Shown here in pieces: positions 10,883 to 61,310 of a stretch of DNA of 64,000 nucleotides (positions are counted from its first letter, which is position 1; each line of letters opens with the position of its first letter). The notes below the pieces were generated by a model. That model searched no databases. It was given only the letters and a program-made list of their open reading frames with translations, and was not told the origin of the DNA. The translations under genes were made by a program, and so were the position numbers. The stretch comes from a bacterium (GTDB lineage Bacteria > Bacillota_I > Bacilli_A > RF39 > UBA660): NCBI GenBank assembly GCA_963661295.1, contig CAVLBI010000133.1, positions 168-64,167 on the forward strand, written 5' to 3'.

Positions 10883-11443
10883 ATGAAAAATAATAAAGGA
10901 TTTACTCTAGTAGAAGTTCTAGCAATGTTATTAGTACTTGGAATAATTGTTGGTATTACAATTCCTAACATAACAGGTATTTTAGGTAGTCAAAAAGAAA
11001 ATATATTAATTGAAGATGCAAAAAAATTAATAAATGATGCTGAAACGCAAATGACTATAAATTCAAAAATAAAAAAACCAGTAAACAGTAGTCAATGTGT
11101 AATATTTACACTTGATTATTTAGATAAGAATGAAGATGTAGTAAAAGGAAACGATAATGCTGTATACTCAAGGACAATGTCAGTTGTGGTAGTATCTAAA
11201 CATGGTAAACAATATGACTATAAGGTAAGATTACTTGAAAATGTAGATGGAATATATTATGGATTTGATAGTGTAGGAAAAGATAGCTTGGAATCTGGTA
11301 GTGCAAAAAATGCTTTAAAAAATGTTACAGAAGGACTTGTAGACTTTAAAGACAAGTCATCAACAACACAAGCACAAAGTGCTATGGGATCAACTACAAT
11401 ATGTGGATGTCAATCATCAAACTTAGTAGATTTCTATGGATAA
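10883..11443 (+). CDS. prepilin-type N-terminal cleavage/methylation domain protein (type IV pilin/pseudopilin)
   Basis: MKNNKG|FTLVEVLAMLLVLGIIVGI: class III signal with G-1/F+1/E+5. C-terminal Cys pair. Confidence 0.8.
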   Translation: MKNNKGFTLVEVLAMLLVLGIIVGITIPNITGILGSQKENILIEDAKKLINDAETQMTINSKIKKPVNSSQCVIFTLDYLDKNEDVVKGNDNAVYSRTMSVVVVSKHGKQYDYKVRLLENVDGIYYGFDSVGKDSLESGSAKNALKNVTEGLVDFKDKSSTTQAQSAMGSTTICGCQSSNLVDFYG

Positions 11444-11550: not shown

Positions 11551-12147
11551 ATGAAAAAGAATTTGAGAAGTGCTGGATTTACATTAATCGAGTTACTTGC
11601 AGTTATTACAATTTTAGGTATTTTAATGATGGTAGCAATCCCATCAGTATCTCGTACAATTGAAAACGCAAGACGTGATACATTTGCAGATGTTGCAAAA
11701 GAGTATGTTAATCAAGTTAGAAATGCTGTACTTGCAGATGAATTAAACTGTGGTACAGGAACAAATGTACAAAGCGTAGGAGCAACACCAGATGGAGTGT
11801 ATTATTATGAAATTGATACAACTTCAACTGGAACAACAGATTTAATGGAATCAGGTGGAAAATCATCTTGGTCAAATGCTGAAATCAAAGGTTATGTTGC
11901 TTGGAAGAAAGAAACAAAAACAACTAGTGGAACAAATACAAAAACAACAACAACTTATGCAACATTATTAGTAGACGCTGGAGAACATGGTATTGAGACA
12001 TTTACTCTTGAAAAAGATATTTCAAGATCAAAAGTAACAACAGCAGCATCAACTAATAAATATGCAAATGCAATATCTGGTATTAGTACTACTGTTGGAG
12101 CTACTACTGCATTTGGAAAAACACCTACAAAATGTACATTAAAATAA
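11551..12147 (+). CDS. prepilin-type pilin-like protein with a Thr/Gly-rich C-terminal region
   Basis: MKKNLRSAG|FTLIELLAVITILGILMMVAIP. C-terminal Cys (NCGTG...KCTLK). Confidence 0.8.
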   Translation: MKKNLRSAGFTLIELLAVITILGILMMVAIPSVSRTIENARRDTFADVAKEYVNQVRNAVLADELNCGTGTNVQSVGATPDGVYYYEIDTTSTGTTDLMESGGKSSWSNAEIKGYVAWKKETKTTSGTNTKTTTTYATLLVDAGEHGIETFTLEKDISRSKVTTAASTNKYANAISGISTTVGATTAFGKTPTKCTLK

Positions 12148-30604: not shown

Positions 30605-31258
30605 ATGGGTGAATATATAACAGAAGAAATAATAATTCAAGAATATTTAAATAACTGGTTCACATATGAAGAATTAGCAGAATACTTATGTACTGATATA
30701 AATAAAATTAAATATACATTAGATAGTTACTGTGCTATGACAAAAGAATTAAATGCTAAAGTAAAACAACACAAACAGCATATAGAAAGTTACTATAGAG
30801 TAAAAGAAAATAATGAAGAAATCTATATATATCAAGCAAGTAAATATTATGCCGAAATAGCTAAATATATAATTGAAAATCATGCATCATTAAGACAAAC
30901 AGCCAAAAAATTTGAACTAGGTAAAACAACAGTATTTGACTATGTACATGAAAAGTTACCAAGCATATCAATAGTACTATATAAAGAAGTATTTAATGTT
31001 CTTATGGAGAATAAGTCATTCTCAACAAAAAATAAACGAGTAGTAGAACAAGTACTAACATCATATGATTATTTAAAAGAAGGACATATAATAGAAGAAA
31101 TAGCCCAGTTACAAAACATAGGTAGAAATGTAGTTCAAAGAAATTTAACAACGCGTCTTCAAAAAATAGATAAGAAAAAATATGAAGATGCAAAAGAAAT
31201 ATTAAGAGGAAATCAATTTAGTGGAATCAGTGAACATAAATTCACAAAGCATAACTAA
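30605..31258 (+). CDS. hypothetical protein with an embedded SpoIIID-like HTH segment
   Basis: SLRQTAKKFELGKTTVFDYVHEKLPSISIVLYKEVFNVLMENKS parallels the SpoIIID HTH and basic region. It lies between lepA and hemW. Confidence 0.55.
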   Translation: MGEYITEEIIIQEYLNNWFTYEELAEYLCTDINKIKYTLDSYCAMTKELNAKVKQHKQHIESYYRVKENNEEIYIYQASKYYAEIAKYIIENHASLRQTAKKFELGKTTVFDYVHEKLPSISIVLYKEVFNVLMENKSFSTKNKRVVEQVLTSYDYLKEGHIIEEIAQLQNIGRNVVQRNLTTRLQKIDKKKYEDAKEILRGNQFSGISEHKFTKHN

Positions 31259-32351
31259 AAGCTGCTACATTCATATACCGTTTTGTAATAGAATATGCTC
31301 ATACTGTGATTTTTGTAAAATATATTATAATAAAGACTTAGTAAAAAGATATTTAGATTCACTAAAAAAAGAAATAGAATTAAACTACAATCAAGAAGTA
31401 TTAAATACTATTTATATAGGAGGAGGAACTCCAAGTTCCCTAGATATTGATGAATTAGAATATTTATTTAAGACGCTAAGTATATTAAAAAAAGATAAAA
31501 ACATAGAATTCACTATAGAAGGAAACCTTGAAAGTACAACAAAAGAAAAATTAGACTTATATAAAAAATATGGAATAAATAGATTATCATTTGGAATAGA
31601 ATCAATCAATAAAGATAATTTAAAATTTCTAGAAAGAAGTCTTGATAAAGAAAAAGTAAAAGAAGTACTAGACTATGCAAAACTAATTGGTATATCTAAT
31701 ATAAATGTAGATTTAATATATGCAATACCAAATGAAACTAATGAAATACTAAAAAAAGATATAGAATATATTCTAAGTCTAAATGTTCCTCATATATCTA
31801 CATATTCATTAATTATTGAAGATAATACTAAATTAAAAATTAATAATGAAAAAAATATTGAAGAAGAAAAAGATTATGAAATGTATAAACTTATATGTAA
31901 GACTCTAAGAGATAATAACTATAATCATTATGAAATAAGTAACTTTTCAAAAGAAGGATATGAGTCAGTTCATAATACTTGTTACTGGAATAATGATAGA
32001 TATTATGGATTTGGTCTAGGTGCAAGTTCATATATAAATAATATAAGAAGTACAAATACAAGATCAATTACAAAATACTTAAAAAATGACTACATATATG
32101 AACAAGAAACTCTTTCTAAAAAAGATGAAATGGAATATGAAGTAATATTAAATTTAAGAAAAAAAGAAGGAATAGACTTAAAAAAGTTTAAAGAAAAATA
32201 TAATATAGATTTAATTAATATATATAATTATAAAGATTTATTAGAAAATAAATTATTATCATTATCTAGTAATACTCTTTCAATTACAGAAGATAAATGG
32301 TATATTAGTAATGAGATAATTGTAAAACTATTAGGATGTGAAGTAAAATGA
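31221..32351 (+). CDS. hemW: radical SAM heme chaperone HemW (HemN-like, oxygen-independent coproporphyrinogen oxidase family)
   Basis: CYIHIPFCNRICSYCDF motif matches CxxxCxxC plus the HemW signature. Follows lepA as in Bacillus. Confidence 0.85.
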   Translation: MESVNINSQSITKSCYIHIPFCNRICSYCDFCKIYYNKDLVKRYLDSLKKEIELNYNQEVLNTIYIGGGTPSSLDIDELEYLFKTLSILKKDKNIEFTIEGNLESTTKEKLDLYKKYGINRLSFGIESINKDNLKFLERSLDKEKVKEVLDYAKLIGISNINVDLIYAIPNETNEILKKDIEYILSLNVPHISTYSLIIEDNTKLKINNEKNIEEEKDYEMYKLICKTLRDNNYNHYEISNFSKEGYESVHNTCYWNNDRYYGFGLGASSYINNIRSTNTRSITKYLKNDYIYEQETLSKKDEMEYEVILNLRKKEGIDLKKFKEKYNIDLINIYNYKDLLENKLLSLSSNTLSITEDKWYISNEIIVKLLGCEVK

Positions 32352-32929
32352 ATATAGAAACAATGTTTGATAATGAAATAGGTTACATAAAAGATGAACA
32401 ACTTAAATCATCAATGATTAAATTATTAAAACTTTTACCAGAATATTGGTTTGAAGTACCTGCATCATCTACAGGAAAATATCATCCAGAATATGCCTTA
32501 GGTGATGGAGGTTTATTAAGACACTCAAAAGCCGCAATGCGAATAGGCTATGAATTGTTATCAGACCCATCAATTGGAGAAAAATATACTGATCACGAAA
32601 AAGACTTAATGTTGATGTCACTACTTGTACATGATGGATTAAAAAGTGGTAATCCAAAAGAAAAATATACAAGATTTGATCACCCAATTCTAATGGCTAA
32701 TTATGTATTAGATCATCATGAAGAAATTGGTCTTTCAAAGGAAGACGCAACATTTTGTGCAGATGTTATTAAAACACATATGGGATATTGGACAACAGAT
32801 TACAATGGTAATGAAGTCCTAGAAAAGCCAAAAACAAAGTATCAAAACTTTGTTCATATGTGTGACTATCTAGCTAGTAGAAAATGTATTTTAGTTCCAT
32901 TTGACAAAGATAACAAAATAAGTGTTTAA
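32348..32929 (+). CDS. HD-domain protein
   Basis: H...HD-type metal motifs (KYHPEYAL...LLVHDGLKSG...HMCDYLASR). Confidence 0.55.
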   Translation: MNIETMFDNEIGYIKDEQLKSSMIKLLKLLPEYWFEVPASSTGKYHPEYALGDGGLLRHSKAAMRIGYELLSDPSIGEKYTDHEKDLMLMSLLVHDGLKSGNPKEKYTRFDHPILMANYVLDHHEEIGLSKEDATFCADVIKTHMGYWTTDYNGNEVLEKPKTKYQNFVHMCDYLASRKCILVPFDKDNKISV

Positions 32930-32995
32930 AACACTTATTTTTCATTGTCATAAATATAAATTTTTGATAATATTATAGTAAAGGAGACAATATAA

Positions 32996-33559
32996 ATGGC
33001 AAAAAAGAATAAGAAAAAACTTTCAAAAAAGAAACAACTAGAATTAAAACAACAAAGAAAAGTAATATCTTATTGTCTAATTTTATGCCTTTTAGTACTC
33101 TTATTAACATATTTTATATTTTACAAAGATACCCTAAAAACAAGTGTTGATGAAGTAACTGCAAGTTATATTTCATTTAATAATTCCAAAACAACAGATA
33201 TGTTAAAAATATCAAATCTATCTAAAATGAAAGATGATAAGGGTAAAAGTATATTAAATCCAAGTACAAAGATGTTTGATGTTAATGGAAATATTAAAGA
33301 AAAATATGAAGTAGTAGTTTATGCTTTAGGTAATAAAGCTGATGAATCATACGTAAAATTTACTTTATATGATGAAAATAACAATGAAATAAATTCAGGT
33401 ATTTTAAATGATTCAAAAACTTCAGTAGATGGAGGAAAAGTAATATACCAATCATCAATTAAAAAAAATAACAAATTTAAACTAAATATGTGGTTATCAA
33501 AGAAATATCAAGGTAATACTAAAAATATATCATATGAAATAAAAATTAAACCTAGATAG
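32996..33559 (+). CDS. membrane-anchored hypothetical protein with a Lys-rich N-terminus
   Basis: MAKKNKKKLSKKKQLELKQQRK, then one TM segment and a hydrophilic domain. Confidence 0.5.
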   Translation: MAKKNKKKLSKKKQLELKQQRKVISYCLILCLLVLLLTYFIFYKDTLKTSVDEVTASYISFNNSKTTDMLKISNLSKMKDDKGKSILNPSTKMFDVNGNIKEKYEVVVYALGNKADESYVKFTLYDENNNEINSGILNDSKTSVDGGKVIYQSSIKKNNKFKLNMWLSKKYQGNTKNISYEIKIKPR

Positions 33560-33570
33560 GAGTGACAAAT

Positions 33571-34251
33571 ATGCCCGGAAAAATAATTGTAATAGAAGGA
33601 ACTGATTGTTCTGGTAAAGAAACACAATCTAATCTTTTAGAAAAAAAGCTACAAAAGCAAGGAAAAAAATGTGTTAGATTTTCATTTCCTGATTATCAAG
33701 CTCCAACTGGAAAAATAGTAGGGGGACCATACCTTGGAAAACCAGAAATTGGACCAAGCTTATTTAAAGAAGGTGCCGTAAATGTAGATCCATACGTAGT
33801 ATGTTTATACTATGCAGCTGATAGAAAGTATCATTTACCAAAAATTCAAGAGTATTTAGAGAAAGACTATTATGTAATACTTGATCGCTATACAACATCA
33901 AACTTAGCTCATCAAGGAAGTAAGATTCATAATAAAGAAGAAAGATTTAATATGTATCAATGGATTGATAAATTAGAATATTGGTTATTAGGACTACCAA
34001 AACCAGATAAAACAATATTCCTACATGTCCCACTAGAAAATACACTAGAGTTAAGAAAAAACAGAAAATTTATTGATGAACACGAAAAATCTCCAGAATA
34101 TTTAAAAAGAGCAGAAGAGTCATATTTAGAACTTGTAGAATTATACAACTGGGAAAAAATTGAATGTATAAAAGATGAAAAATTAAGAACAATAGAAGAC
34201 ATAAATGAAGAAATAATGGGAATTATTGAAAAAATAGAAGAAAGTAAATAG
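33571..34251 (+). CDS. thymidylate-kinase-family (dNMP kinase-like) protein with an atypical P-loop
   Basis: IVIEGTDCSGKETQ P-loop and DRYTTSNLAHQG block as in Tmk. TAGGAGTGA RBS precedes ATG 33571. Confidence 0.65.
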   Translation: MPGKIIVIEGTDCSGKETQSNLLEKKLQKQGKKCVRFSFPDYQAPTGKIVGGPYLGKPEIGPSLFKEGAVNVDPYVVCLYYAADRKYHLPKIQEYLEKDYYVILDRYTTSNLAHQGSKIHNKEERFNMYQWIDKLEYWLLGLPKPDKTIFLHVPLENTLELRKNRKFIDEHEKSPEYLKRAEESYLELVELYNWEKIECIKDEKLRTIEDINEEIMGIIEKIEESK

Positions 34252-34307: not shown

Positions 34308-36383
34308 CTATACCTTAGGAATTAATGGATTATTATTAATCTTAGGTTGCCCGTTACTTATATTTTGATGAACTGTTGTAGTTGAATTTATAGAACTAAA
34401 TTGTCCAGAATTATAATTGTAATTTGTATTTGAATATGGTTTTGAAGTAGGAGGCGTTGTTGCTGTCGGAGCCGTTGTAGTTACAGTTGATGAAGTCACT
34501 GTTGGTGAAGTACTTTTTGCAGTAGGAATACTTAATATTGTTGGATTAGTACTCTGAGTTTTAGCAGGAATAGTACTTTGGACTGGTGTAGTATTTATTG
34601 TTGGTATAATAGGTTTTGCCTGAATTGGAGGATTAGTAGTAATACTCTTCATAGCAGGAGCTGTTGTAGGAACACCAGCAGTACTTGGGGAAATAGGCGG
34701 CCTAATAACAGGCGCAGTAGGAATTGATGCTACAACTCCAGAAGTATTAGTATTTGTCTTTACCTGACTATCATTTTGTACAATTTGTTTATTTTGAATA
34801 TTATTATTTACATTACTAACAACATTACTTGATTGAATAGGAGCATTAGTATTTGCAACACCTGGAATATTAACTGCTGGCACAGTTTTTTTAGGAGGCA
34901 CATTTACAGAAGCTCCATTTGTCTCTGCACTAATATTTTTATTATCACTTGAATAATTAAAATCACTAGCACTAAATACTGGACCTTTCATCATATTAGA
35001 AATGTTATTTTTATCATTCTTATCAACCTTAGTATCAATTAACTCATCGCTTTCTTGCCAATCATCAGGATTGTTACTAGGTAAATTAGCAGTAACCTCT
35101 TTTAAGAAGTCACCAATTTCACTTTCATAAGTATCATCATCTTCAGTTTCAATTTCAATATTTCTATAAACTTCCTCAAAAGAAGTTTTACCTTCAAGAC
35201 ACTTTATCAAGGCATCTTGTAACATCGTAATAGTTTTATTTGTATAAACCATTTTAGCTAACTCAGTTTTTTCAAGCTTTTCATTATTAAGAGCAGATCT
35301 TATTTCATCATCAAGTTCCAATACTTCATGGAAAGCAATTCTTCCATGATATCCACGTCTACAATGCTCACACCCCTTAGGATTAGCATCCCATATCATT
35401 GGAACATCTCTATGCATAAATCTCTTAAATACTTTTTTCTCATAAGGAGTAGTAGGTCTTTGAAACCTACAATCTGGACATAACATTTTCGCAAGTCTCT
35501 GAGAAATGATTCCAGTTAAAGCAGTAGATAGCAAATATCTTTCAACATTCATATCAAGTAAACGTTCAACTGTAGCTAAAGCATTATTTGTATGGATTGT
35601 AGATAAAACTAAGTGTCCAGTAATAGATGCACGTACAGCAATTTGAGCTGTTTCAGAATCACGAATTTCTCCGATAAGTATAATATTTGGATCCTGACGC
35701 AAAATGGAACGTAGTGCAGCAGCAAATGTCATACCAATTTCTGAATTAACTTGAACCTGGTTTATTCCTTCAATATTCATTTCTATTGGGTCTTCAACAG
35801 TTATAATGTTTTTTTCAGGTTTATTAAGTCCTTGTAGAATAGAGTAAGTAGTAGTAGATTTACCAGAACCAGTAGCACCAGTAGTTAAAATAATACCATT
35901 AGGAATCTCCATCATTCTTTTAATCTTTTTTAAATTTTCTGGATGGAAACCTAAAGAATCAATACCTTCACTACTTCTAGTATAATCCAAAATACGAATA
36001 ACTATCTTTTCACCTTCATTTAATGGTAGAGAAGATACACGCATATCTAAATATGTTCCACCAAAGTCTCCCTTAATAGCTCCATCTTGTGGTAGACGTG
36101 ATTCAGTAATATTCATGTTTGCAAGCAATTTAAGTCTTGTCGTCAAATTTTTCTCATAAGCTTTAGGAACAAAAGTATAGTCCTGGCAATCACCATCAAT
36201 TCTGAATCTTACCATCATTCCATCTTCTCTAGGATCGAAATGAATATCGGAAGCCTTATGATTAGATGCAGCAATAATTATATAGTCGGCAACTTGAGTA
36301 ACAGGAGTCTTTGAAAAATCAAAAGAAACCATAAAGCTCTCAGTACCTTTTTGTACACGTTTTACGTCAAATTGTACCATCAT
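34308..36383 (-). CDS. GspE/PilB/ComGA-family secretion ATPase with a ~270-aa C-terminal Thr/Pro/Asn-rich low-complexity extension
   Basis: Walker A GATGSGKSTT, Asp box, His box GHLVLSTIHTN and tetracysteine CPDC...CEHC. No N1 domain. AAAAGGGG RBS before ATG 36383. The track ORF starts at TTG 36407. Confidence 0.85.
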   Translation of the reverse strand: MMVQFDVKRVQKGTESFMVSFDFSKTPVTQVADYIIIAASNHKASDIHFDPREDGMMVRFRIDGDCQDYTFVPKAYEKNLTTRLKLLANMNITESRLPQDGAIKGDFGGTYLDMRVSSLPLNEGEKIVIRILDYTRSSEGIDSLGFHPENLKKIKRMMEIPNGIILTTGATGSGKSTTTYSILQGLNKPEKNIITVEDPIEMNIEGINQVQVNSEIGMTFAAALRSILRQDPNIILIGEIRDSETAQIAVRASITGHLVLSTIHTNNALATVERLLDMNVERYLLSTALTGIISQRLAKMLCPDCRFQRPTTPYEKKVFKRFMHRDVPMIWDANPKGCEHCRRGYHGRIAFHEVLELDDEIRSALNNEKLEKTELAKMVYTNKTITMLQDALIKCLEGKTSFEEVYRNIEIETEDDDTYESEIGDFLKEVTANLPSNNPDDWQESDELIDTKVDKNDKNNISNMMKGPVFSASDFNYSSDNKNISAETNGASVNVPPKKTVPAVNIPGVANTNAPIQSSNVVSNVNNNIQNKQIVQNDSQVKTNTNTSGVVASIPTAPVIRPPISPSTAGVPTTAPAMKSITTNPPIQAKPIIPTINTTPVQSTIPAKTQSTNPTILSIPTAKSTSPTVTSSTVTTTAPTATTPPTSKPYSNTNYNYNSGQFSSINSTTTVHQNISNGQPKINNNPLIPKV

Positions 36384-36508
36384 TCCAACCCCTTTTGTTG
36401 AATTCAATGATAAATACCATAATTAAAAAAGATTAAAACTATGGCATTTTACTAAAATATATTATATAATAAATTCTAGATAATAGCAAGGAGAGTGACA
36501 AGGAAAAA

Positions 36509-37258
36509 ATGAAAAAAAATTCTAACAAAGGCTTCGTTCTTGCTGAAACGTTAGTAACAACAGTTTTTTTAATGGTTATCTTTACAATGATTTACTCTAA
36601 TTTTTATCCCCTAATAGGTGAATATGAAAAAAGAGAAAATTATGATACAGCAGATGGAAAATATGCAGCTTATTGGATGAAAAAAATAGTAGAAGATGAA
36701 AACTATGGTGCTAACTCTGATGCAATGATTAAAAAGAAATATAATTTGAAAAATTATGGTTATTTTAGAGTAGAGTGTACTGATTTTTCAGACTCATCTC
36801 AAACAAAAAGTTTGTGTATGAACTTAGTTAAGGATTATGAGATAAATGGTTGCAGTAGAGATGGAAAAGGTTCTAGTTGTGATATATTTTTAACTAAATA
36901 TCAAATAGGTGATACTAACCCAGACTTCAAAAAGCGTGTAAAGGACAATTTAAAGAATTGGCAAGAAGATTGTTTCACAACAAGTGGAGCAGTAGGAGAT
37001 GCAACAACATGTAGAAATGAATACATTCAAAAATGTATTTCAGAAAGTCAAAAAAACCCAGAAACACAAAGACCGATATGTGAAAAAGAAGCAGATAAAA
37101 AAGTATTTTCAAGTAATTTTCAAGACTATATTGAATACTTGCCAAAATATACAACACCATCACTAAATCTAGCCCCATATAGAGTAATTATAGTTGTTCA
37201 TCATACAAAGGATTATAATAATTACCTATCATATTCGACAATCGAGGTGAATAGATAA
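36509..37258 (+). CDS. prepilin-type pilin-like protein with a Cys-rich C-terminal domain
   Basis: MKKNSNKG|FVLAETLVTTVFLMVIF class III signal. Ten Cys in the mature part. Confidence 0.7.
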   Translation: MKKNSNKGFVLAETLVTTVFLMVIFTMIYSNFYPLIGEYEKRENYDTADGKYAAYWMKKIVEDENYGANSDAMIKKKYNLKNYGYFRVECTDFSDSSQTKSLCMNLVKDYEINGCSRDGKGSSCDIFLTKYQIGDTNPDFKKRVKDNLKNWQEDCFTTSGAVGDATTCRNEYIQKCISESQKNPETQRPICEKEADKKVFSSNFQDYIEYLPKYTTPSLNLAPYRVIIVVHHTKDYNNYLSYSTIEVNR

Positions 37259-37971
37259 TGAGAAAGTTAAATAATAAAGGTATAACAACAATCGAGTTAA
37301 TAGTATCAATAGTCTTAATCATGATGGTTGCATCATCCCTTTTCTCAACGATAACAGCTTATAATGAAAAAAGACAAGTAGAAAGTTATAAAGCAGAAAT
37401 ATTAACTTATAAAAATAATCTTACAAAACTAATTCAAGATGACTTCATAAAAATAGGAATAACAAAAGCAACTTACAAAAGATATACATCAGGAACATCA
37501 TCAAACAATACATATGATATATTAAAAGTAGAAGATAAAATGACTCTATATCAAATAGATTATATATTAGAAGATGGAACTCCAAGAAGATTAATAATCT
37601 ATCAACAATATACAAAAAGTAGTGACCATCCATCAGGCTCAAATTCAAGAAATGACTACTTCATGATTGAATATGGAACACCAGACTTAACAAAAAATGA
37701 TGTTGATGATCAAAACGAACCGCTTATAGAGTATCCACTACCAAATCTAGGAAGTCATACAGCAGATAATGGCTTAACAACAAAAGACTTAACAATCAAT
37801 AATGTTTTAATATCATTTGGACAAGATGAAACTTATTCAACAACAAATATCCTATCAATATATATAGGCTTCTATCACCCAGAACTATCAACAAAATACG
37901 GAATAAACATAATTTGCCCAATAAATTATAAAGGAAGTAGTACAGAAATAACTAATAGTTTTGATATTTAA
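37258..37971 (+). CDS. prepilin-type pilin-like (minor pilin-like) protein
   Basis: MRKLNNKG|ITTIELIVSIVLIMMVASS. Its start overlaps the upstream pilin gene's stop (ATAATG). Confidence 0.7.
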   Translation: MRKLNNKGITTIELIVSIVLIMMVASSLFSTITAYNEKRQVESYKAEILTYKNNLTKLIQDDFIKIGITKATYKRYTSGTSSNNTYDILKVEDKMTLYQIDYILEDGTPRRLIIYQQYTKSSDHPSGSNSRNDYFMIEYGTPDLTKNDVDDQNEPLIEYPLPNLGSHTADNGLTTKDLTINNVLISFGQDETYSTTNILSIYIGFYHPELSTKYGINIICPINYKGSSTEITNSFDI

Positions 37972-38852
37972 ATGAAATATAAAATATTAAAAATAATAAC
38001 AGCTAAAATAGTTCCAATAACTCTTCCAATAAAAAAATATTTATATTTAATTGAAGTATCCGAAAGGATACTTTTTACTTGTAAGTGAATAGATATACCA
38101 CCAAAACTAATAAATAATAAAACAACCAATCCCCTTAAATATAGATTACTAATTAAAACACTAGAATAAATCCCTTTAGTAAGATCAAAAACACCACATA
38201 CAATTACATATAATATCCCATTAATATCAAAAGTATTAATAATTATACAAGCAATTAAATAGAAAAATATAGATACACCATATATAGTTACTAGTACTTT
38301 TAATGAATTATGTATTGCTTTAACAAGTCCTTTCGAAAAATCATCATTTATTGTATAAGTACTTTTATATTCTTGGGTTTTACGTGAAAATATAAGAATT
38401 ATCAAATTACTCAAAATAATTGCCAGTAATAAACATCTTATTATTTTATTATCGCCTATAACGAGTGTTAGGGAGCTAATCATAAATAATGGATTAGGAA
38501 AATGACTAAACATAAGCATCCTGTTAGCTTCATTAACTCCAACAATACCACTATTATATAGATCTTTTGTATACTTACTTCCACTAGGAAAACCACTAAT
38601 CATACTAATTAAGAAAATATAAAGGTTAGTTGTTCTAACATGGAAAACTCTATCTAAAAAAGAAATAATCCCATAGTCAATTAATAAACTACTAATAATA
38701 AAGAAAATAAAACTAACGGGAAACATCTTTTTTATAAAAATTTCAGTATAATCTAAAATACTAACAATTACTAAGTTACTATTAAACAGGTAAAACACAA
38801 GCATTCCAATTAATGTGACAAGTATTAGTCTACTTTTATATATTTTTTTCAT
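37968..38852 (-). CDS. polytopic membrane protein, possibly YlbJ-like (nucleoside-recognition/Gate-domain)
   Basis: 8-10 TM segments. AAAGGA RBS precedes ATG 38852 (MKKIYKSRL...). Adjacent to a YlbL-like gene. Confidence 0.45.
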   Translation of the reverse strand: MKKIYKSRLILVTLIGMLVFYLFNSNLVIVSILDYTEIFIKKMFPVSFIFFIISSLLIDYGIISFLDRVFHVRTTNLYIFLISMISGFPSGSKYTKDLYNSGIVGVNEANRMLMFSHFPNPLFMISSLTLVIGDNKIIRCLLLAIILSNLIILIFSRKTQEYKSTYTINDDFSKGLVKAIHNSLKVLVTIYGVSIFFYLIACIIINTFDINGILYVIVCGVFDLTKGIYSSVLISNLYLRGLVVLLFISFGGISIHLQVKSILSDTSIKYKYFFIGRVIGTILAVIIFNILYFI

Positions 38853-38892: not shown

Positions 38893-39912
38893 ATGATAAA
38901 AAAAGCAATCAACTATATTATGGAATTCATAAAAGAAGAATATAGATTTATTATATTTATGCTTCTACTAATAATTTTATTAAATTATCCAGTAAATTAT
39001 TACATAACTGTTGGTGGGGGTATAAGTGATGTCTCATCAAGGATTGAAGTAAAAGATAAATATGACTCTAAAGGAAATTTCAATATAAGTTATGTTACTG
39101 AACTTAAGGGTACTTTGTTTTCATATGCCATAAGTTATATTGTCCCAACTTGGGAAAGAACATCAGCTGATGACTATAAATATACAGAAGAAGAAAGTCT
39201 AGAAGACATTGAGTTTAGAAATGATTTAGATTTAAAAACAGCAAACGGAACTGCAACATACTGGGCCTATACACTAGCAAATAAGAGGCTACAAGAAACA
39301 TCATCAAAAGTCTATGTAATATTAATTGATAACAAAGATTATAAAACAGACTTAAAAGTTCAAGACGAAATATTATCAATAGATGGAAAAACATATAAAA
39401 CAACAAAAGAATATAAAGAATATCTTCAAACAAAAAATACTAATGATAAAGTAGAAGTAAAAGTATTAAGAGATAATAAGAAAAAAATAATAACAAGTAA
39501 TGTATATGATTATCAAGGTACAAAATTATTAGGAATTGGTCTTCAAACAGTAAAAGAATATAAAACTAGTCCAAAAGTAGATATAAAATTTAATAAAAGC
39601 GAATCCGGACCATCAGGAGGTTTAATCACAACGCTAGAAATATATAATCAACTAGTAAAAAAAGATTTAACTAAAGGTCATACAATTGCCGGAACTGGAA
39701 CAATAGAAGAAGATGGAACAATAGGTCAAATTGGTGGAGTAGAATATAAAATACTAGGAGCTGAAAAAGGTGGGGCTGAGTATTTCTTAGTACCAGCAGG
39801 TCAAAACTATAAAGATGCCAAAAAATATAAAGAAAAAAATAATTTAAAAATAAAACTAATAAAAGTAAAAACAATCCAAGATGCTATAGAAAAGTTGGAG
39901 GCATTAAAATGA
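38893..39912 (+). CDS. YlbL/SepM-like membrane-anchored PDZ plus Lon-like (S16) protease-domain protein
   Basis: TM anchor. PDZ-like DEILSIDGKTYKT...VEVKVLRDNKK. Lon catalytic Ser SESGPSGG and Lys block IGGVEYKILGAEKGG. Confidence 0.7.
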   Translation: MIKKAINYIMEFIKEEYRFIIFMLLLIILLNYPVNYYITVGGGISDVSSRIEVKDKYDSKGNFNISYVTELKGTLFSYAISYIVPTWERTSADDYKYTEEESLEDIEFRNDLDLKTANGTATYWAYTLANKRLQETSSKVYVILIDNKDYKTDLKVQDEILSIDGKTYKTTKEYKEYLQTKNTNDKVEVKVLRDNKKKIITSNVYDYQGTKLLGIGLQTVKEYKTSPKVDIKFNKSESGPSGGLITTLEIYNQLVKKDLTKGHTIAGTGTIEEDGTIGQIGGVEYKILGAEKGGAEYFLVPAGQNYKDAKKYKEKNNLKIKLIKVKTIQDAIEKLEALK

Positions 39913-40454
39913 GAATAGGTATTGATATGGATGATACAATTTGTAATACAACACAAATTGTCCAAGATAGAGTAAGAAAGTATGCAAAGTCGAACAATTT
40001 AAATGAATTAGACATAATGAATGATGAAGATTTAAAACAAGGATTCTTCAATATATACTTAGAAGATATTTATACAAATGTAACTCCAAAAGAAGATGCT
40101 CTTCGAGTTGTAAAAAGACTAAAAAGTAGAGGAAATGAAATATATATAATAACAGCTAGGAGTAATAATTTTTCAAATACAGTTAAAAATGTTGAAGAAA
40201 TAACCTCAGCTTGGTTAAAAAAATATGGAATAGAAGTAGACAAAATAATTACATCAGCTTATGGTGATACAAAAAGTGAAGCCTGTAAAAAATATAAAAT
40301 AGATTATATGATAGATGATGATCCATATAATTTTAAAAGAATATCATCAGTAACAAAATGTATAATATATGATGATATGGATAGATTTGAAGGAAGTAAA
40401 AACATTTTAACTAAATGGAAAGATATAGAAACCTATATAGAAAGGAATAGATAA
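39909..40454 (+). CDS. HAD-superfamily 5'(3')-deoxyribonucleotidase-like hydrolase
   Basis: Motif I GIDMDDTI (DxDxT). Motif III/IV KIDYMIDDDP. Confidence 0.6.
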   Translation: MRIGIDMDDTICNTTQIVQDRVRKYAKSNNLNELDIMNDEDLKQGFFNIYLEDIYTNVTPKEDALRVVKRLKSRGNEIYIITARSNNFSNTVKNVEEITSAWLKKYGIEVDKIITSAYGDTKSEACKKYKIDYMIDDDPYNFKRISSVTKCIIYDDMDRFEGSKNILTKWKDIETYIERNR

Positions 40455-40455
40455 A

Positions 40456-41256
40456 ATGAAAAAAACATTTCTAATTATAATAACCGCTTTAATGATAATC
40501 TTACCTGTAAATGCAGCAAACTATGACTTAAATGAACTAATACCAATAAACAAAACAACAACTCTAGGAACAGATAATCTAAGATATATAAATTTTTCTT
40601 ATAAAGAACAAGAAAATAAAATTGTATTTGAGAATATAAAAAATGTCTCAAATGAAGATAAAGCAATCACAGTAACAATAGCTCTTTTTTCAAAAGATAA
40701 GAAAAATATTGGAACTGTTAATTACTGCTCAAATAATATGCCAACAAACAATCAAGTAAGAGTACTAAAGCCAAACGAATCAACACCATATCAAATTGAT
40801 ATAACAAAAGACTATTTAGGTGAGGATTATAACTTAAGTGATATAAAATATATAGCAGTTATAAGTGACAATAAAAACTGTTTAACAAAAAATGCAGATG
40901 AATATTTAGGTCAAAAAATAGAAGAAATTGGTCAGATAAAAAACAATGGTTTATCTGATGACAGTGAACTATTAATTAAAATATTAACAATAATAGGTGG
41001 AGTTCTTTTAGTAATTTTTGTTTATAATTTTATGTTTTCATCAAAATACAGAAACGTAGATGGAGAAGATGTAAGACAAGAATATAGTTATATAAATAAG
41101 AAATTAGAAGATAAAAGAAAGTATGATGCTATTCACAATCCAAAACCTAAAAAAGTAAAAAAAGAAACAAAAACTCAAGAAGTAAAGAATCAAGAAGAAA
41201 TAGAAAACAATAATACTAATAAAGAGTCATCTGACTTACACAATTTTTATAAATAA
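40456..41256 (+). CDS. secreted hypothetical protein with a C-terminal TM segment and a long charged tail
   Basis: Signal peptide MKKTFLIIITALMIILPVNA and a TM segment (LLIKILTIIGGVLLVIFVYNFMF) in the C-terminal quarter, followed by a long Lys/Glu-rich tail. Confidence 0.55.
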   Translation: MKKTFLIIITALMIILPVNAANYDLNELIPINKTTTLGTDNLRYINFSYKEQENKIVFENIKNVSNEDKAITVTIALFSKDKKNIGTVNYCSNNMPTNNQVRVLKPNESTPYQIDITKDYLGEDYNLSDIKYIAVISDNKNCLTKNADEYLGQKIEEIGQIKNNGLSDDSELLIKILTIIGGVLLVIFVYNFMFSSKYRNVDGEDVRQEYSYINKKLEDKRKYDAIHNPKPKKVKKETKTQEVKNQEEIENNNTNKESSDLHNFYK

Positions 41257-60854: not shown

Positions 60855-61310
60855 ATGAAATTAAATAAAAAAGGATTTTCATTGGTTGAATTACTAGGAG
60901 CAATAGTAATCCTTGCAATCATGATGGGACTTGCAACAGCAGCATATTCAAGATATAGACAAAAAGCAAAACAACAAGGATATGATACAATGGCAGAGTC
61001 TGCAAGTAATGCAGCATCAGAATATGTAATGGATCACCCTGGAGCTTATCAAGTAACTTTTGAAGAATTGTATGAACAAGAATATATGAGTTCACTACAA
61101 GACCCAGGTAAAAAAGACAAAAATTGTACAGGAAATGTAATTTTAAGGACAGCAAAAAATGAGGATGTTGGGGCGCTAGATACGGAAGAATACTACGTAA
61201 ATGTTTGCTGCAAAAATTATAATTACTCATATGTCTTCCCAGGAGGAAGTAAAACAAAGAACAAAGAGTGCAATGTAGAAGCAGACGCATGTTCTGTTGG
61301 TTCATGCTAG
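60855..61310 (+). CDS. prepilin-type pilin-like protein with a Cys-rich C-terminus
   Basis: MKLNKKG|FSLVELLGAIVILAIMMGLATAAYS. C-terminal CTGNV...VCCKNY...CNVEADACSVGSC. Confidence 0.75.
   Translation: MKLNKKGFSLVELLGAIVILAIMMGLATAAYSRYRQKAKQQGYDTMAESASNAASEYVMDHPGAYQVTFEELYEQEYMSSLQDPGKKDKNCTGNVILRTAKNEDVGALDTEEYYVNVCCKNYNYSYVFPGGSKTKNKECNVEADACSVGSC

Follow-up and report, generated by a model that had tools for sequence, protein, structure and literature searches.

Type IV filaments are built by a machine in which a hexameric ATPase drives a PilC-type platform that extrudes peptidase-processed pilins (PMC10790768; PMC6668835). The minimal Com pilus has five pilins, and in Com systems comC is "a distant loner", so that an unlinked peptidase gene is normal for them (PMC10790768). 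Classical Mollicutes have been reported to be without pilus genes (PMC3244431), and a literature search for RF39 and pili returned nothing relevant. Here we analyze a three-gene block at positions 34308-37971 of a 64,000-nucleotide stretch (hereafter the window, a low-GC sequence of ~27% GC) of contig CAVLBI010000133.1, from an uncultured bacterium of the GTDB lineage RF39, UBA660 (assembly GCA_963661295.1). The block encodes a secretion-type ATPase and two prepilins, and we consider it likely that the former is the cytoplasmic motor, and the latter two of the pilins, of a minimalist type IV filament that is particular to this lineage of uncultured low-GC gut Bacilli, has its genes dispersed and probably serves to capture DNA, to adhere or both. 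The machine is of a familiar kind, in a form specific to the lineage.

The Com pilus of monoderms (Bacillus subtilis, Streptococcus pneumoniae, S. sanguinis), also termed T4dP, resembles this system in its core parts only: a single extension ATPase that has no N1 domain and a set of five pilins, together with one platform protein and one peptidase, which are here presumed. As in the Com pilus, no retraction ATPase and no PilMNO are seen locally, the peptidase gene can be unlinked, and the genome encodes ComEA and ComEC (PMC10790768). The layout differs: there is no comGA-GG operon, the ATPase gene stands alone on its strand, divergent from two pilin genes, and the genes are dispersed, in agreement with the original prediction, made from the DNA letters alone, that this is neither a comGA-GG operon nor a standard type IV pilus operon. 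The pilin heads are also unrelated to known ones. Monoderm type IVa pili (the pil loci of Clostridium perfringens, C. difficile and S. sanguinis) share a PilB/PilC/PilD-type core, which gives similar scores, as well as pilins that act as carriers of extra C-terminal modules; however, neither the window nor the sister-clade clusters described below showed PilT or PilM/N/O, and the ATPase is without the N-terminal domains of PilB. The S. sanguinis pil locus encodes the modular pilins PilB and PilC. Finally, the type II secretion ATPase GspE/EpsE (Vibrio; 4pht, 1p9r) has in common with our protein the N2 and C-terminal domains, the Asp and His boxes and a tetracysteine motif, but its GspL-binding N1 domain is not found here, where there is instead a tail with a terminal motif and no other type II secretion part.

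The motor gene lies in a minus-strand open reading frame (ORF) of 699 codons at 34308-36407. Its likely start is the ATG at 36383, which has AAAGGGGT just before it and agrees with the annotated gene call, giving a gene at 34308-36383 and a GspE/PilB-type product of 691 residues, whose numbering we use for its motifs; a TTG at 36407 is a less likely alternative. We ran Pfam on 30 window ORFs (relevant gathering scores, 24.9 bits for PF00437 and 21.2 bits for PF07963, N_methyl), and the T2SSE family PF00437 covered residues 33-415 with 389 bits (E = 2e-116), which bears out the GspE/PilB/ComGA-family assignment already made from the letters. The catalytic core (residues 1-415; 35139..36383, minus strand) comprises the N2 and C-terminal domains and contains every motif that had been claimed, namely Walker A (GATGSGKS, residue 169), the Asp box (VEDPIE, 196), the His box (TGHLVLSTIHT, 255) and a tetracysteine zinc-type motif (CPDC at 302, CEHC at 338), in addition to a Walker B (IILIGEIRD, 234). 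The four cysteines line up with those of GspE and may bind metal. By sequence, the nearest solved structures are Vibrio GspE 4pht (E = 8e-98), then PilB 5zfr and PilF (E ~1e-97 to 1e-91). The alignment to Vibrio GspE opens with residue 26 of the ATPase against residue 118 of GspE (across solved relatives the query starts at 24-36), and because it starts this far into GspE the ATPase has no N1 domain, as originally proposed; the alignment to PilB begins at PilB residue 194-200, leaving the N-terminal domains of PilB without a counterpart. Scores against the NCBIfam equivalog models all fall below their cut-offs (GspE, 458 vs 630 bits; PilB, 434 vs 676; ComGA, 268 vs 300), and therefore no single named subfamily fits. 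The CxxC...CxxC subdomain, as in GspE and PilB, which lies beyond the part covered by the 267-position ComGA model, and the disordered tail are further differences from the Com pilus. We classify the protein, on these alignments, as an extension-type member of the GspE/PilB/ComGA family. It stands alone: the window encodes no second T2SSE-family protein, such as a PilT retraction ATPase.

The motor is tightly conserved. A species-level scan with one genome per species yielded 61 loci, every one from uncultured gut or rumen metagenome-assembled genomes (MAGs), and the order lepA-hemW-HD-p187-tmk-[ATPase]-pp1-pp2-[ylbJ]-sepM-NT5C-p266, where pp1 and pp2 are the two prepilin genes, is retained in ~50 species-level MAGs or loci. 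With the window protein as reference, the ATPase core (49 species-level loci) shows a median identity of 88%, against 83% for LepA, and exceeds LepA in 22 of 27 loci, whereas both pilins are at ~43%. A conserved ATPase with divergent pilins is what one would expect if the motor is under constraint and the surface subunits evolve fast.

The remaining 276 residues of the ATPase (416-691; 34311..35138, minus strand) make up a low-complexity tail rich in T, N, S and P, probably a disordered linker. Relatives have tails of ~35 to ~345 residues, without conservation of sequence. The tail of the window ATPase ends in the motif PLIPKV (34311..34328, minus strand; consensus P-[LI]-x-P-[KNE]-[ILV]-COOH), which closes 8 of 27 species-level tails, against 0 of 2000 shuffles. 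Among the matches listed in a database search, PL[VI]PK[ILVF] or a one-residue variant ends ~105 of 120 relatives, of which ~95 belong to one 726-residue species group, so that 8 of 27 is the better measure. ATPases of the sister clade end in SLFSxxxNIFK and not in a PLxPK[ILV]-type motif. A variable linker with a fixed end peptide suggests a tether to a partner protein.

Divergent from the ATPase gene, two overlapping plus-strand genes encode the prepilins; the stop of the first and the start of the second form the ATAATG junction that had been pointed out, seen at 37258, and both products have the class III signal peptide that had been described, cleaved at G/F and G/I respectively (slash, predicted cleavage site) and with Glu at +5. 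Prepilin 1 (36509-37258, plus strand; 249 residues) has the leader MKKNSNKG/FVLAE (G8/F9, E13), and its N-terminus, MKKNSNKG/FVLAETLVTTVFLMVIF, combines a short basic leader, Gly at -1, a hydrophobic residue at +1, Glu at +5 and ~20 hydrophobic residues. Across alignments of 35 and 118 homologues, G8, E13, C103, C115 and C124 are invariant, and F9 (at least 90%), C90, C176 and C191 are nearly so. The protein has eight cysteines, four to six of them conserved, where the original prediction counted about ten. PF07963 does not match it, and it has no Pfam or NCBIfam assignment. Its 344 database homologues are all unnamed and without domains, and a profile search of 1.84 billion cluster representatives retrieved 394 clusters at E of at most 1e-10; judging from these matches, this is a sizeable unassigned family of putative pilins. 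An AlphaFold model built with 118 homologues (predicted local distance difference test, pLDDT, 89.8; predicted template modeling score, pTM, 0.80) has a predicted N-terminal helix of 40 residues (7-46), a compact, mostly helical head and two C-terminal strands; this protruding helix on a globular head would be the "lollipop" layout of pilins. A Foldseek search of the model against the PDB gave nothing below E = 0.8, and the prepilin 1 profile matched no PDB sequence. Prepilin 1 is probably a minor or priming pilin.

Prepilin 2 (37258-37971, plus strand; 237 residues; leader MRKLNNKG/ITTIE, G8/I9, E13) likewise begins with a class III leader, MRKLNNKG/ITTIELIVSIVLIMMVA, with Gly at -1, Glu at +5 and a hydrophobic stretch, and G8 and E13 are invariant in 30 of 30 orthologues. 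The invariance of Gly-1 and Glu+5 in 118 and 30 homologues of the two proteins argues for continuing peptidase processing. Prepilin 2 has a single cysteine, so that of the "two Cys-rich prepilins" originally announced only the first deserves the name. It scores 14.2 bits against PF07963, under the 21.2-bit threshold; neither pilin of the block thus passes this test, and the three unlinked prepilins described below do. The N-terminus of prepilin 2 gives weak matches to solved pilins (Geopilin, E = 0.006; PilE1), and a single-sequence model, with a predicted helix at 11-60 followed by strands, is too poor for a structure search (pLDDT 51). Orthologues range from 160 to 841 residues, the longer ones with extra C-terminal domains: one of 579 residues carries Flg_new and ALK_LTK_GRD domains, and a neighboring prepilin in the sister clade carries LRR_5. 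As its orthologues bear variable C-terminal modules, prepilin 2 probably acts as a minor pilin, at the tip or bearing an adhesin, that carries modules for binding.

The 125-bp region between the ATPase gene and prepilin 1 (36384..36508, both strands) appears to hold overlapping divergent promoters. In a promoter scan, a palindromic 10-bp -10 element, ATTATATAAT (36461-36470), is predicted to be used on both strands, with a putative pilin-side -35 element ATGGCA at 36441-36446 and a putative ATPase-side -35 element TTGCTA at 36489-36484 of the minus strand, just upstream of and touching the pilin ribosome-binding site. The pattern ATGGYA-N17-19-TATAAT-N12-16-TAKCAA is shared by 30 of 34 species with pilins of only ~43% identity, and the palindrome is retained in the sister clade and in more distant clades too. 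The spacer looks like two overlapping, mutually exclusive divergent promoters with a common -10 region. We also considered a known RNA as the reason for its conservation: no Rfam family matches, and two overlapping promoters explain it better.

A motif search found three more prepilin genes 22-26 kb from the ATPase block, bringing the window total to five; these genes and the ATPase tail had been omitted from the earlier reading. The first (10883-11443, plus strand; 186 residues, MKNNKG/FTLVE) scores 24.6 bits against PF07963 (above 21.2) and passes the TIGR02532 cut-off, with the ComGC, ComGE and GspG models all below theirs. The second (11551-12147, plus strand; 198 residues, ...SAG/FTLIE) scores 30.7 bits with PF07963 and 28.3 bits with TIGR02532. 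The third (60855-61310, plus strand; 151 residues, MKLNKKG/FSLVE) lies between uvrC and mutL, scores 31.2 bits with PF07963 and aligns to positions 1-78 of the 84 of the ComGC model (28.8 bits, against a cut-off of 75). All three are orphans among housekeeping genes, the first two being upstream of nfo-PBP. Judged by size, the 151-residue protein is the leading candidate for a major pilin that would form the shaft.

Genes for DNA uptake are found on the same contig. About 5.2-7.8 kb to the left of the window (L075 2185-4798) lie comEA (SLBB + HHH_3) and comEC (DUF4131 + Competence + Lactamase_B), the pair that the original prediction had named as worth seeking; ComEC scores 295 bits against a TIGR00361 cut-off of 190, and the ComEA helix-hairpin-helix model gives 87 bits against a cut-off of 53. 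With both genes on the contig, a DNA receptor and an import channel are encoded in the genome. Neither a platform gene (T2SSF, PF00482) nor an A24 peptidase gene (PF01478, with or without PF06750) was found in the 64-kb window, either by Pfam on the 30 ORFs or by phmmer searches of all window ORFs of at least 60 residues with E. coli HofC, GspF and A24 peptidase and a relative's PilC and PilD as queries. Annotation shows none in the 10 kb to the left or in the 7 kb to the right, which reaches the contig end (~80 kb of contig in all), and the claim that no such gene adjoins the block thus holds over a much larger distance. Two proteins were tried as divergent platforms and rejected: the YlbJ-like protein next to the block has no similarity to PilC and matches its own family, TIGR02871, and a 443-residue protein encoded after trmK has no similarity to PilC either.

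Some relatives have the platform and peptidase genes beside the block. At a distant locus of the species scan, L064, a 558-residue T2SSF protein and a 255-residue A24 peptidase adjoin the ATPase. With this PilC as a database query, all 120 listed matches were at least 72% identical to the query, and the three that we looked up all have the layout dnaG-rpoD-trmK-(prepilin)-(yqfQ)-pilC-pilD-[ATPase]-pp1-pp2-[ylbJ-like], which we refer to as that of the sister clade. Here pilC (PF00482) and pilD (PF06750 + PF01478) stand directly before an ATPase(-)/pilin/pilin/ylbJ(-) block. The ATPases are 86-93% identical within the sister clade and ~60% identical to that of the window, and the sister-clade prepilin 1 is ~35% identical to ours over the first 100 residues, which argues that the two blocks are orthologous. 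The sister-clade PilC proteins (L064 5889-7565; L068 8001-9746) are 540-600 residues long and have an N-terminal extension of 150-190 residues, with a hydrophobic segment and a Lys/Glu-rich stretch, that E. coli HofC and GspF do not have.

A metagenome scan with a PilC alignment as query returned 80 loci, and the order comEA-comEC-..-dnaG-rpoD-trmK-pilC-pilD-[ATPase]-pilins-[ylbJ]-sepM was seen again in many low-GC lineages, split differently in different ones; many of the pilC-pilD pairs have no ATPase within 10 kb. In the sister-clade genome L065, trmK is followed directly by the ATPase, with pilC-pilD not between them, and at locus L101 pilC-pilD takes the place, immediately upstream of nfo-PBP, that two pilin genes have in the window. 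The window has its dnaG-rpoD-trmK at 3.7-7.2 kb, at a distance of 27 kb from the ATPase. An ancestral compact cluster that was later broken up would be the simplest history. The "minimal module" of the original prediction is therefore minimal locally; it is not self-contained, since three more prepilins lie in the window, comEA-comEC lie nearby and pilC-pilD stand beside the block in the sister clade. It looks minimal because other parts are encoded elsewhere, with pilC and pilD presumably at another place in the genome.

From these parts we propose a working scheme. A prepilin peptidase would cut both precursors after Gly8, and ATP hydrolysis by the ATPase hexamer would move a PilC-type platform that lifts pilins from the membrane into the growing fiber. 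The shaft would be made of one of the three unlinked prepilins, most likely that at 60855-61310. Prepilins 1 and 2, encoded back-to-back with the motor gene, are best read as low-abundance priming or tip subunits, as they are large, variable, module-bearing and promoter-locked to the motor gene, and prepilin 2 would carry variable surface-binding modules. The disordered tail of the ATPase, which ends in a conserved motif, probably forms a tether between the motor, itself without an N1 domain, and a partner in the membrane. The fiber would probably capture DNA for uptake by ComEA/ComEC, a reasonable role given that both are present, and adhesion is equally plausible because the pilins carry modules; the two functions can coexist.

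Several observations weigh against this proposal. The division into minor and major pilins is drawn from size, variability and position only. The proximity of comEA/comEC to dnaG-rpoD presumably reflects an old synteny of Bacilli, as in the B. subtilis map, and is for this reason weak evidence of a functional link. The tether proposed for the tail is conjectural. No platform or peptidase gene occurs in the ~80 kb of contig covered above, none of the 80 metagenomic pilC loci (0/80) has flanking genes in common with the lineage of the window or could be tied to it, and no retraction ATPase was seen in the window. Finally, the ATPase and the sister-clade PilC fit the GspE, GspF and PilC models better than those of ComGA and ComGB (for ComGB, PilC scores 138 bits against a cut-off of 240), and all ComG pilin models stay below cut-off, with best scores of 32 vs 75 for ComGC and 28 vs 49 for ComGE; for these reasons the system is not a canonical competence pilus.

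These same scores, with ATPase and PilC nearer to GspE/PilB and GspF/PilC than to the Com models, would suit an adhesion or motility pilus without DNA uptake, similar to the type IVa pili of Clostridia or the S. sanguinis pil system, in which the pilin modules bind host glycans or other cells. The Flg_new and ALK_LTK_GRD domains of prepilin 2 orthologues, the LRR_5 domain of the neighboring sister-clade prepilin and the fast evolution of the pilins point the same way. We regard this as possible though rather unlikely: ComEA and ComEC are present, adhesion and DNA uptake are not mutually exclusive, and there is no PilT-type ATPase and no PilM/N/O-like gene in the window or the sister clusters (both being also absent from the annotation of the window flanks). 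With none of PilT and PilMNO seen locally, this is not a standard type IVa pilus.

The ATPase tail leaves room for a more novel, and in our view doubtful, scenario, in which the N1-less motor was newly recruited, through a disordered C-terminal tether (P-L-x-P-K-[ILV]), to a non-canonical partner or to a distant platform. In its extreme version the clade would have dispensed with PilC, and prepilin 1 would present a new Cys-stabilized head fold in a strict gut anaerobe, priming a filament on which these reduced genomes depend as much as on translation factors. The residual possibility of something novel, be it another way of recruiting the motor or even the loss of the platform, depends on whole-genome content.

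By sequence, the ATPase and the sister-clade PilC match GspE and GspF best, as they would if the genes encoded a type II secretion-like pseudopilus pushing proteins through the monoderm cell wall, but both score far under the GspE and GspF cut-offs, the pilins miss those of GspG-K, and no GspC/L/M or secretin gene was seen; this makes such a pseudopilus very unlikely. To our knowledge, no system of this kind has been established in monoderms.

Still less credible is a truly minimal system in which the ATPase and two pilins function without PilC or PilD. It would account for the absence of both from ~80 kb of contig and for a long tail and end motif acquired in this clade, the PilC-linked sister clade being without that motif. 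However, a Gly-1 and a Glu+5 invariant in both pilin families make sense only with an active peptidase, the orthologous block adjoins pilC-pilD in relatives, related lineages often have these genes split, and a platform protein is required in every characterized type IV filament (PMC10790768; PMC6668835).

A decaying remnant of a pilus locus that lost pilC/pilD, as the apparently reduced genome lineage and the missing usual partners might suggest, is hardly conceivable with all catalytic motifs intact, an ATPase core at least as conserved as LepA over ~50 species, and the ORFs, the stop/start overlap and the promoter all conserved.

The bacteria that carry this minimalist, dispersed filament belong to the common, uncultured part of the gut communities of humans and animals, and a motor as tightly conserved as LepA suggests that the filament is central to their life, for DNA scavenging or for attachment to a surface or a partner. 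Beside the Com pilus, it would offer a second minimalist type IV filament for studies of assembly, and it brings an unassigned pilin family and an unusually tailed motor. With the genes scattered in this way, operon-based detectors will miss or misjudge such systems.

The neighbors of the block correspond to those first proposed, a dTMP-kinase-like gene (PF02223, E = 4e-25) and a gene for a YlbJ-like polytopic membrane protein (37968..38852, minus strand; TIGR02871, E = 5e-29, below cut-off). The latter converges with prepilin 2, with a 4-nucleotide overlap (37968-37971) and without an intervening terminator; relatives, for example L005, show this overlap too. The YlbJ-like gene adjoins the block at 39 loci of the main clade and also, even with differing flanks, in the sister clade; it may or may not be a part of the machine. 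Two conserved membrane-anchored proteins of 187 and 266 residues, p187 (32996-33559, upstream of tmk) and p266 (40456-41256), flank the block throughout the main clade and have no family or PDB match.

Genes for nucleotide metabolism also surround the block, encoding an HD phosphohydrolase, the dTMP kinase and an NT5C 5'-nucleotidase (32348-34251, 39909-40454), with a PNP_UDP_1 phosphorylase further out (L001 21744-22181). This clustering may be coincidental, but would be suggestive if the pilus feeds DNA scavenging. Database records of relatives carry the labels "Bacilli", "Mollicutes" or "Erysipelotrichaceae bacterium". Sporulation-type genes, encoding a SpoIIID domain protein, YlbJ, the germination protease GPR and SpoIIP, occur in the window (30605-31258, 37968-38852) and at L074 (14011-15765), and a sortase and PBP are also present in this lineage often labeled "Mollicutes", which evidently has a cell wall and is possibly spore-forming. 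Almost all window genes are on the plus strand, the ATPase and the YlbJ-like protein being encoded by two of its very few minus-strand genes, and the GC skew falls to ~0 across 34-38 kb.

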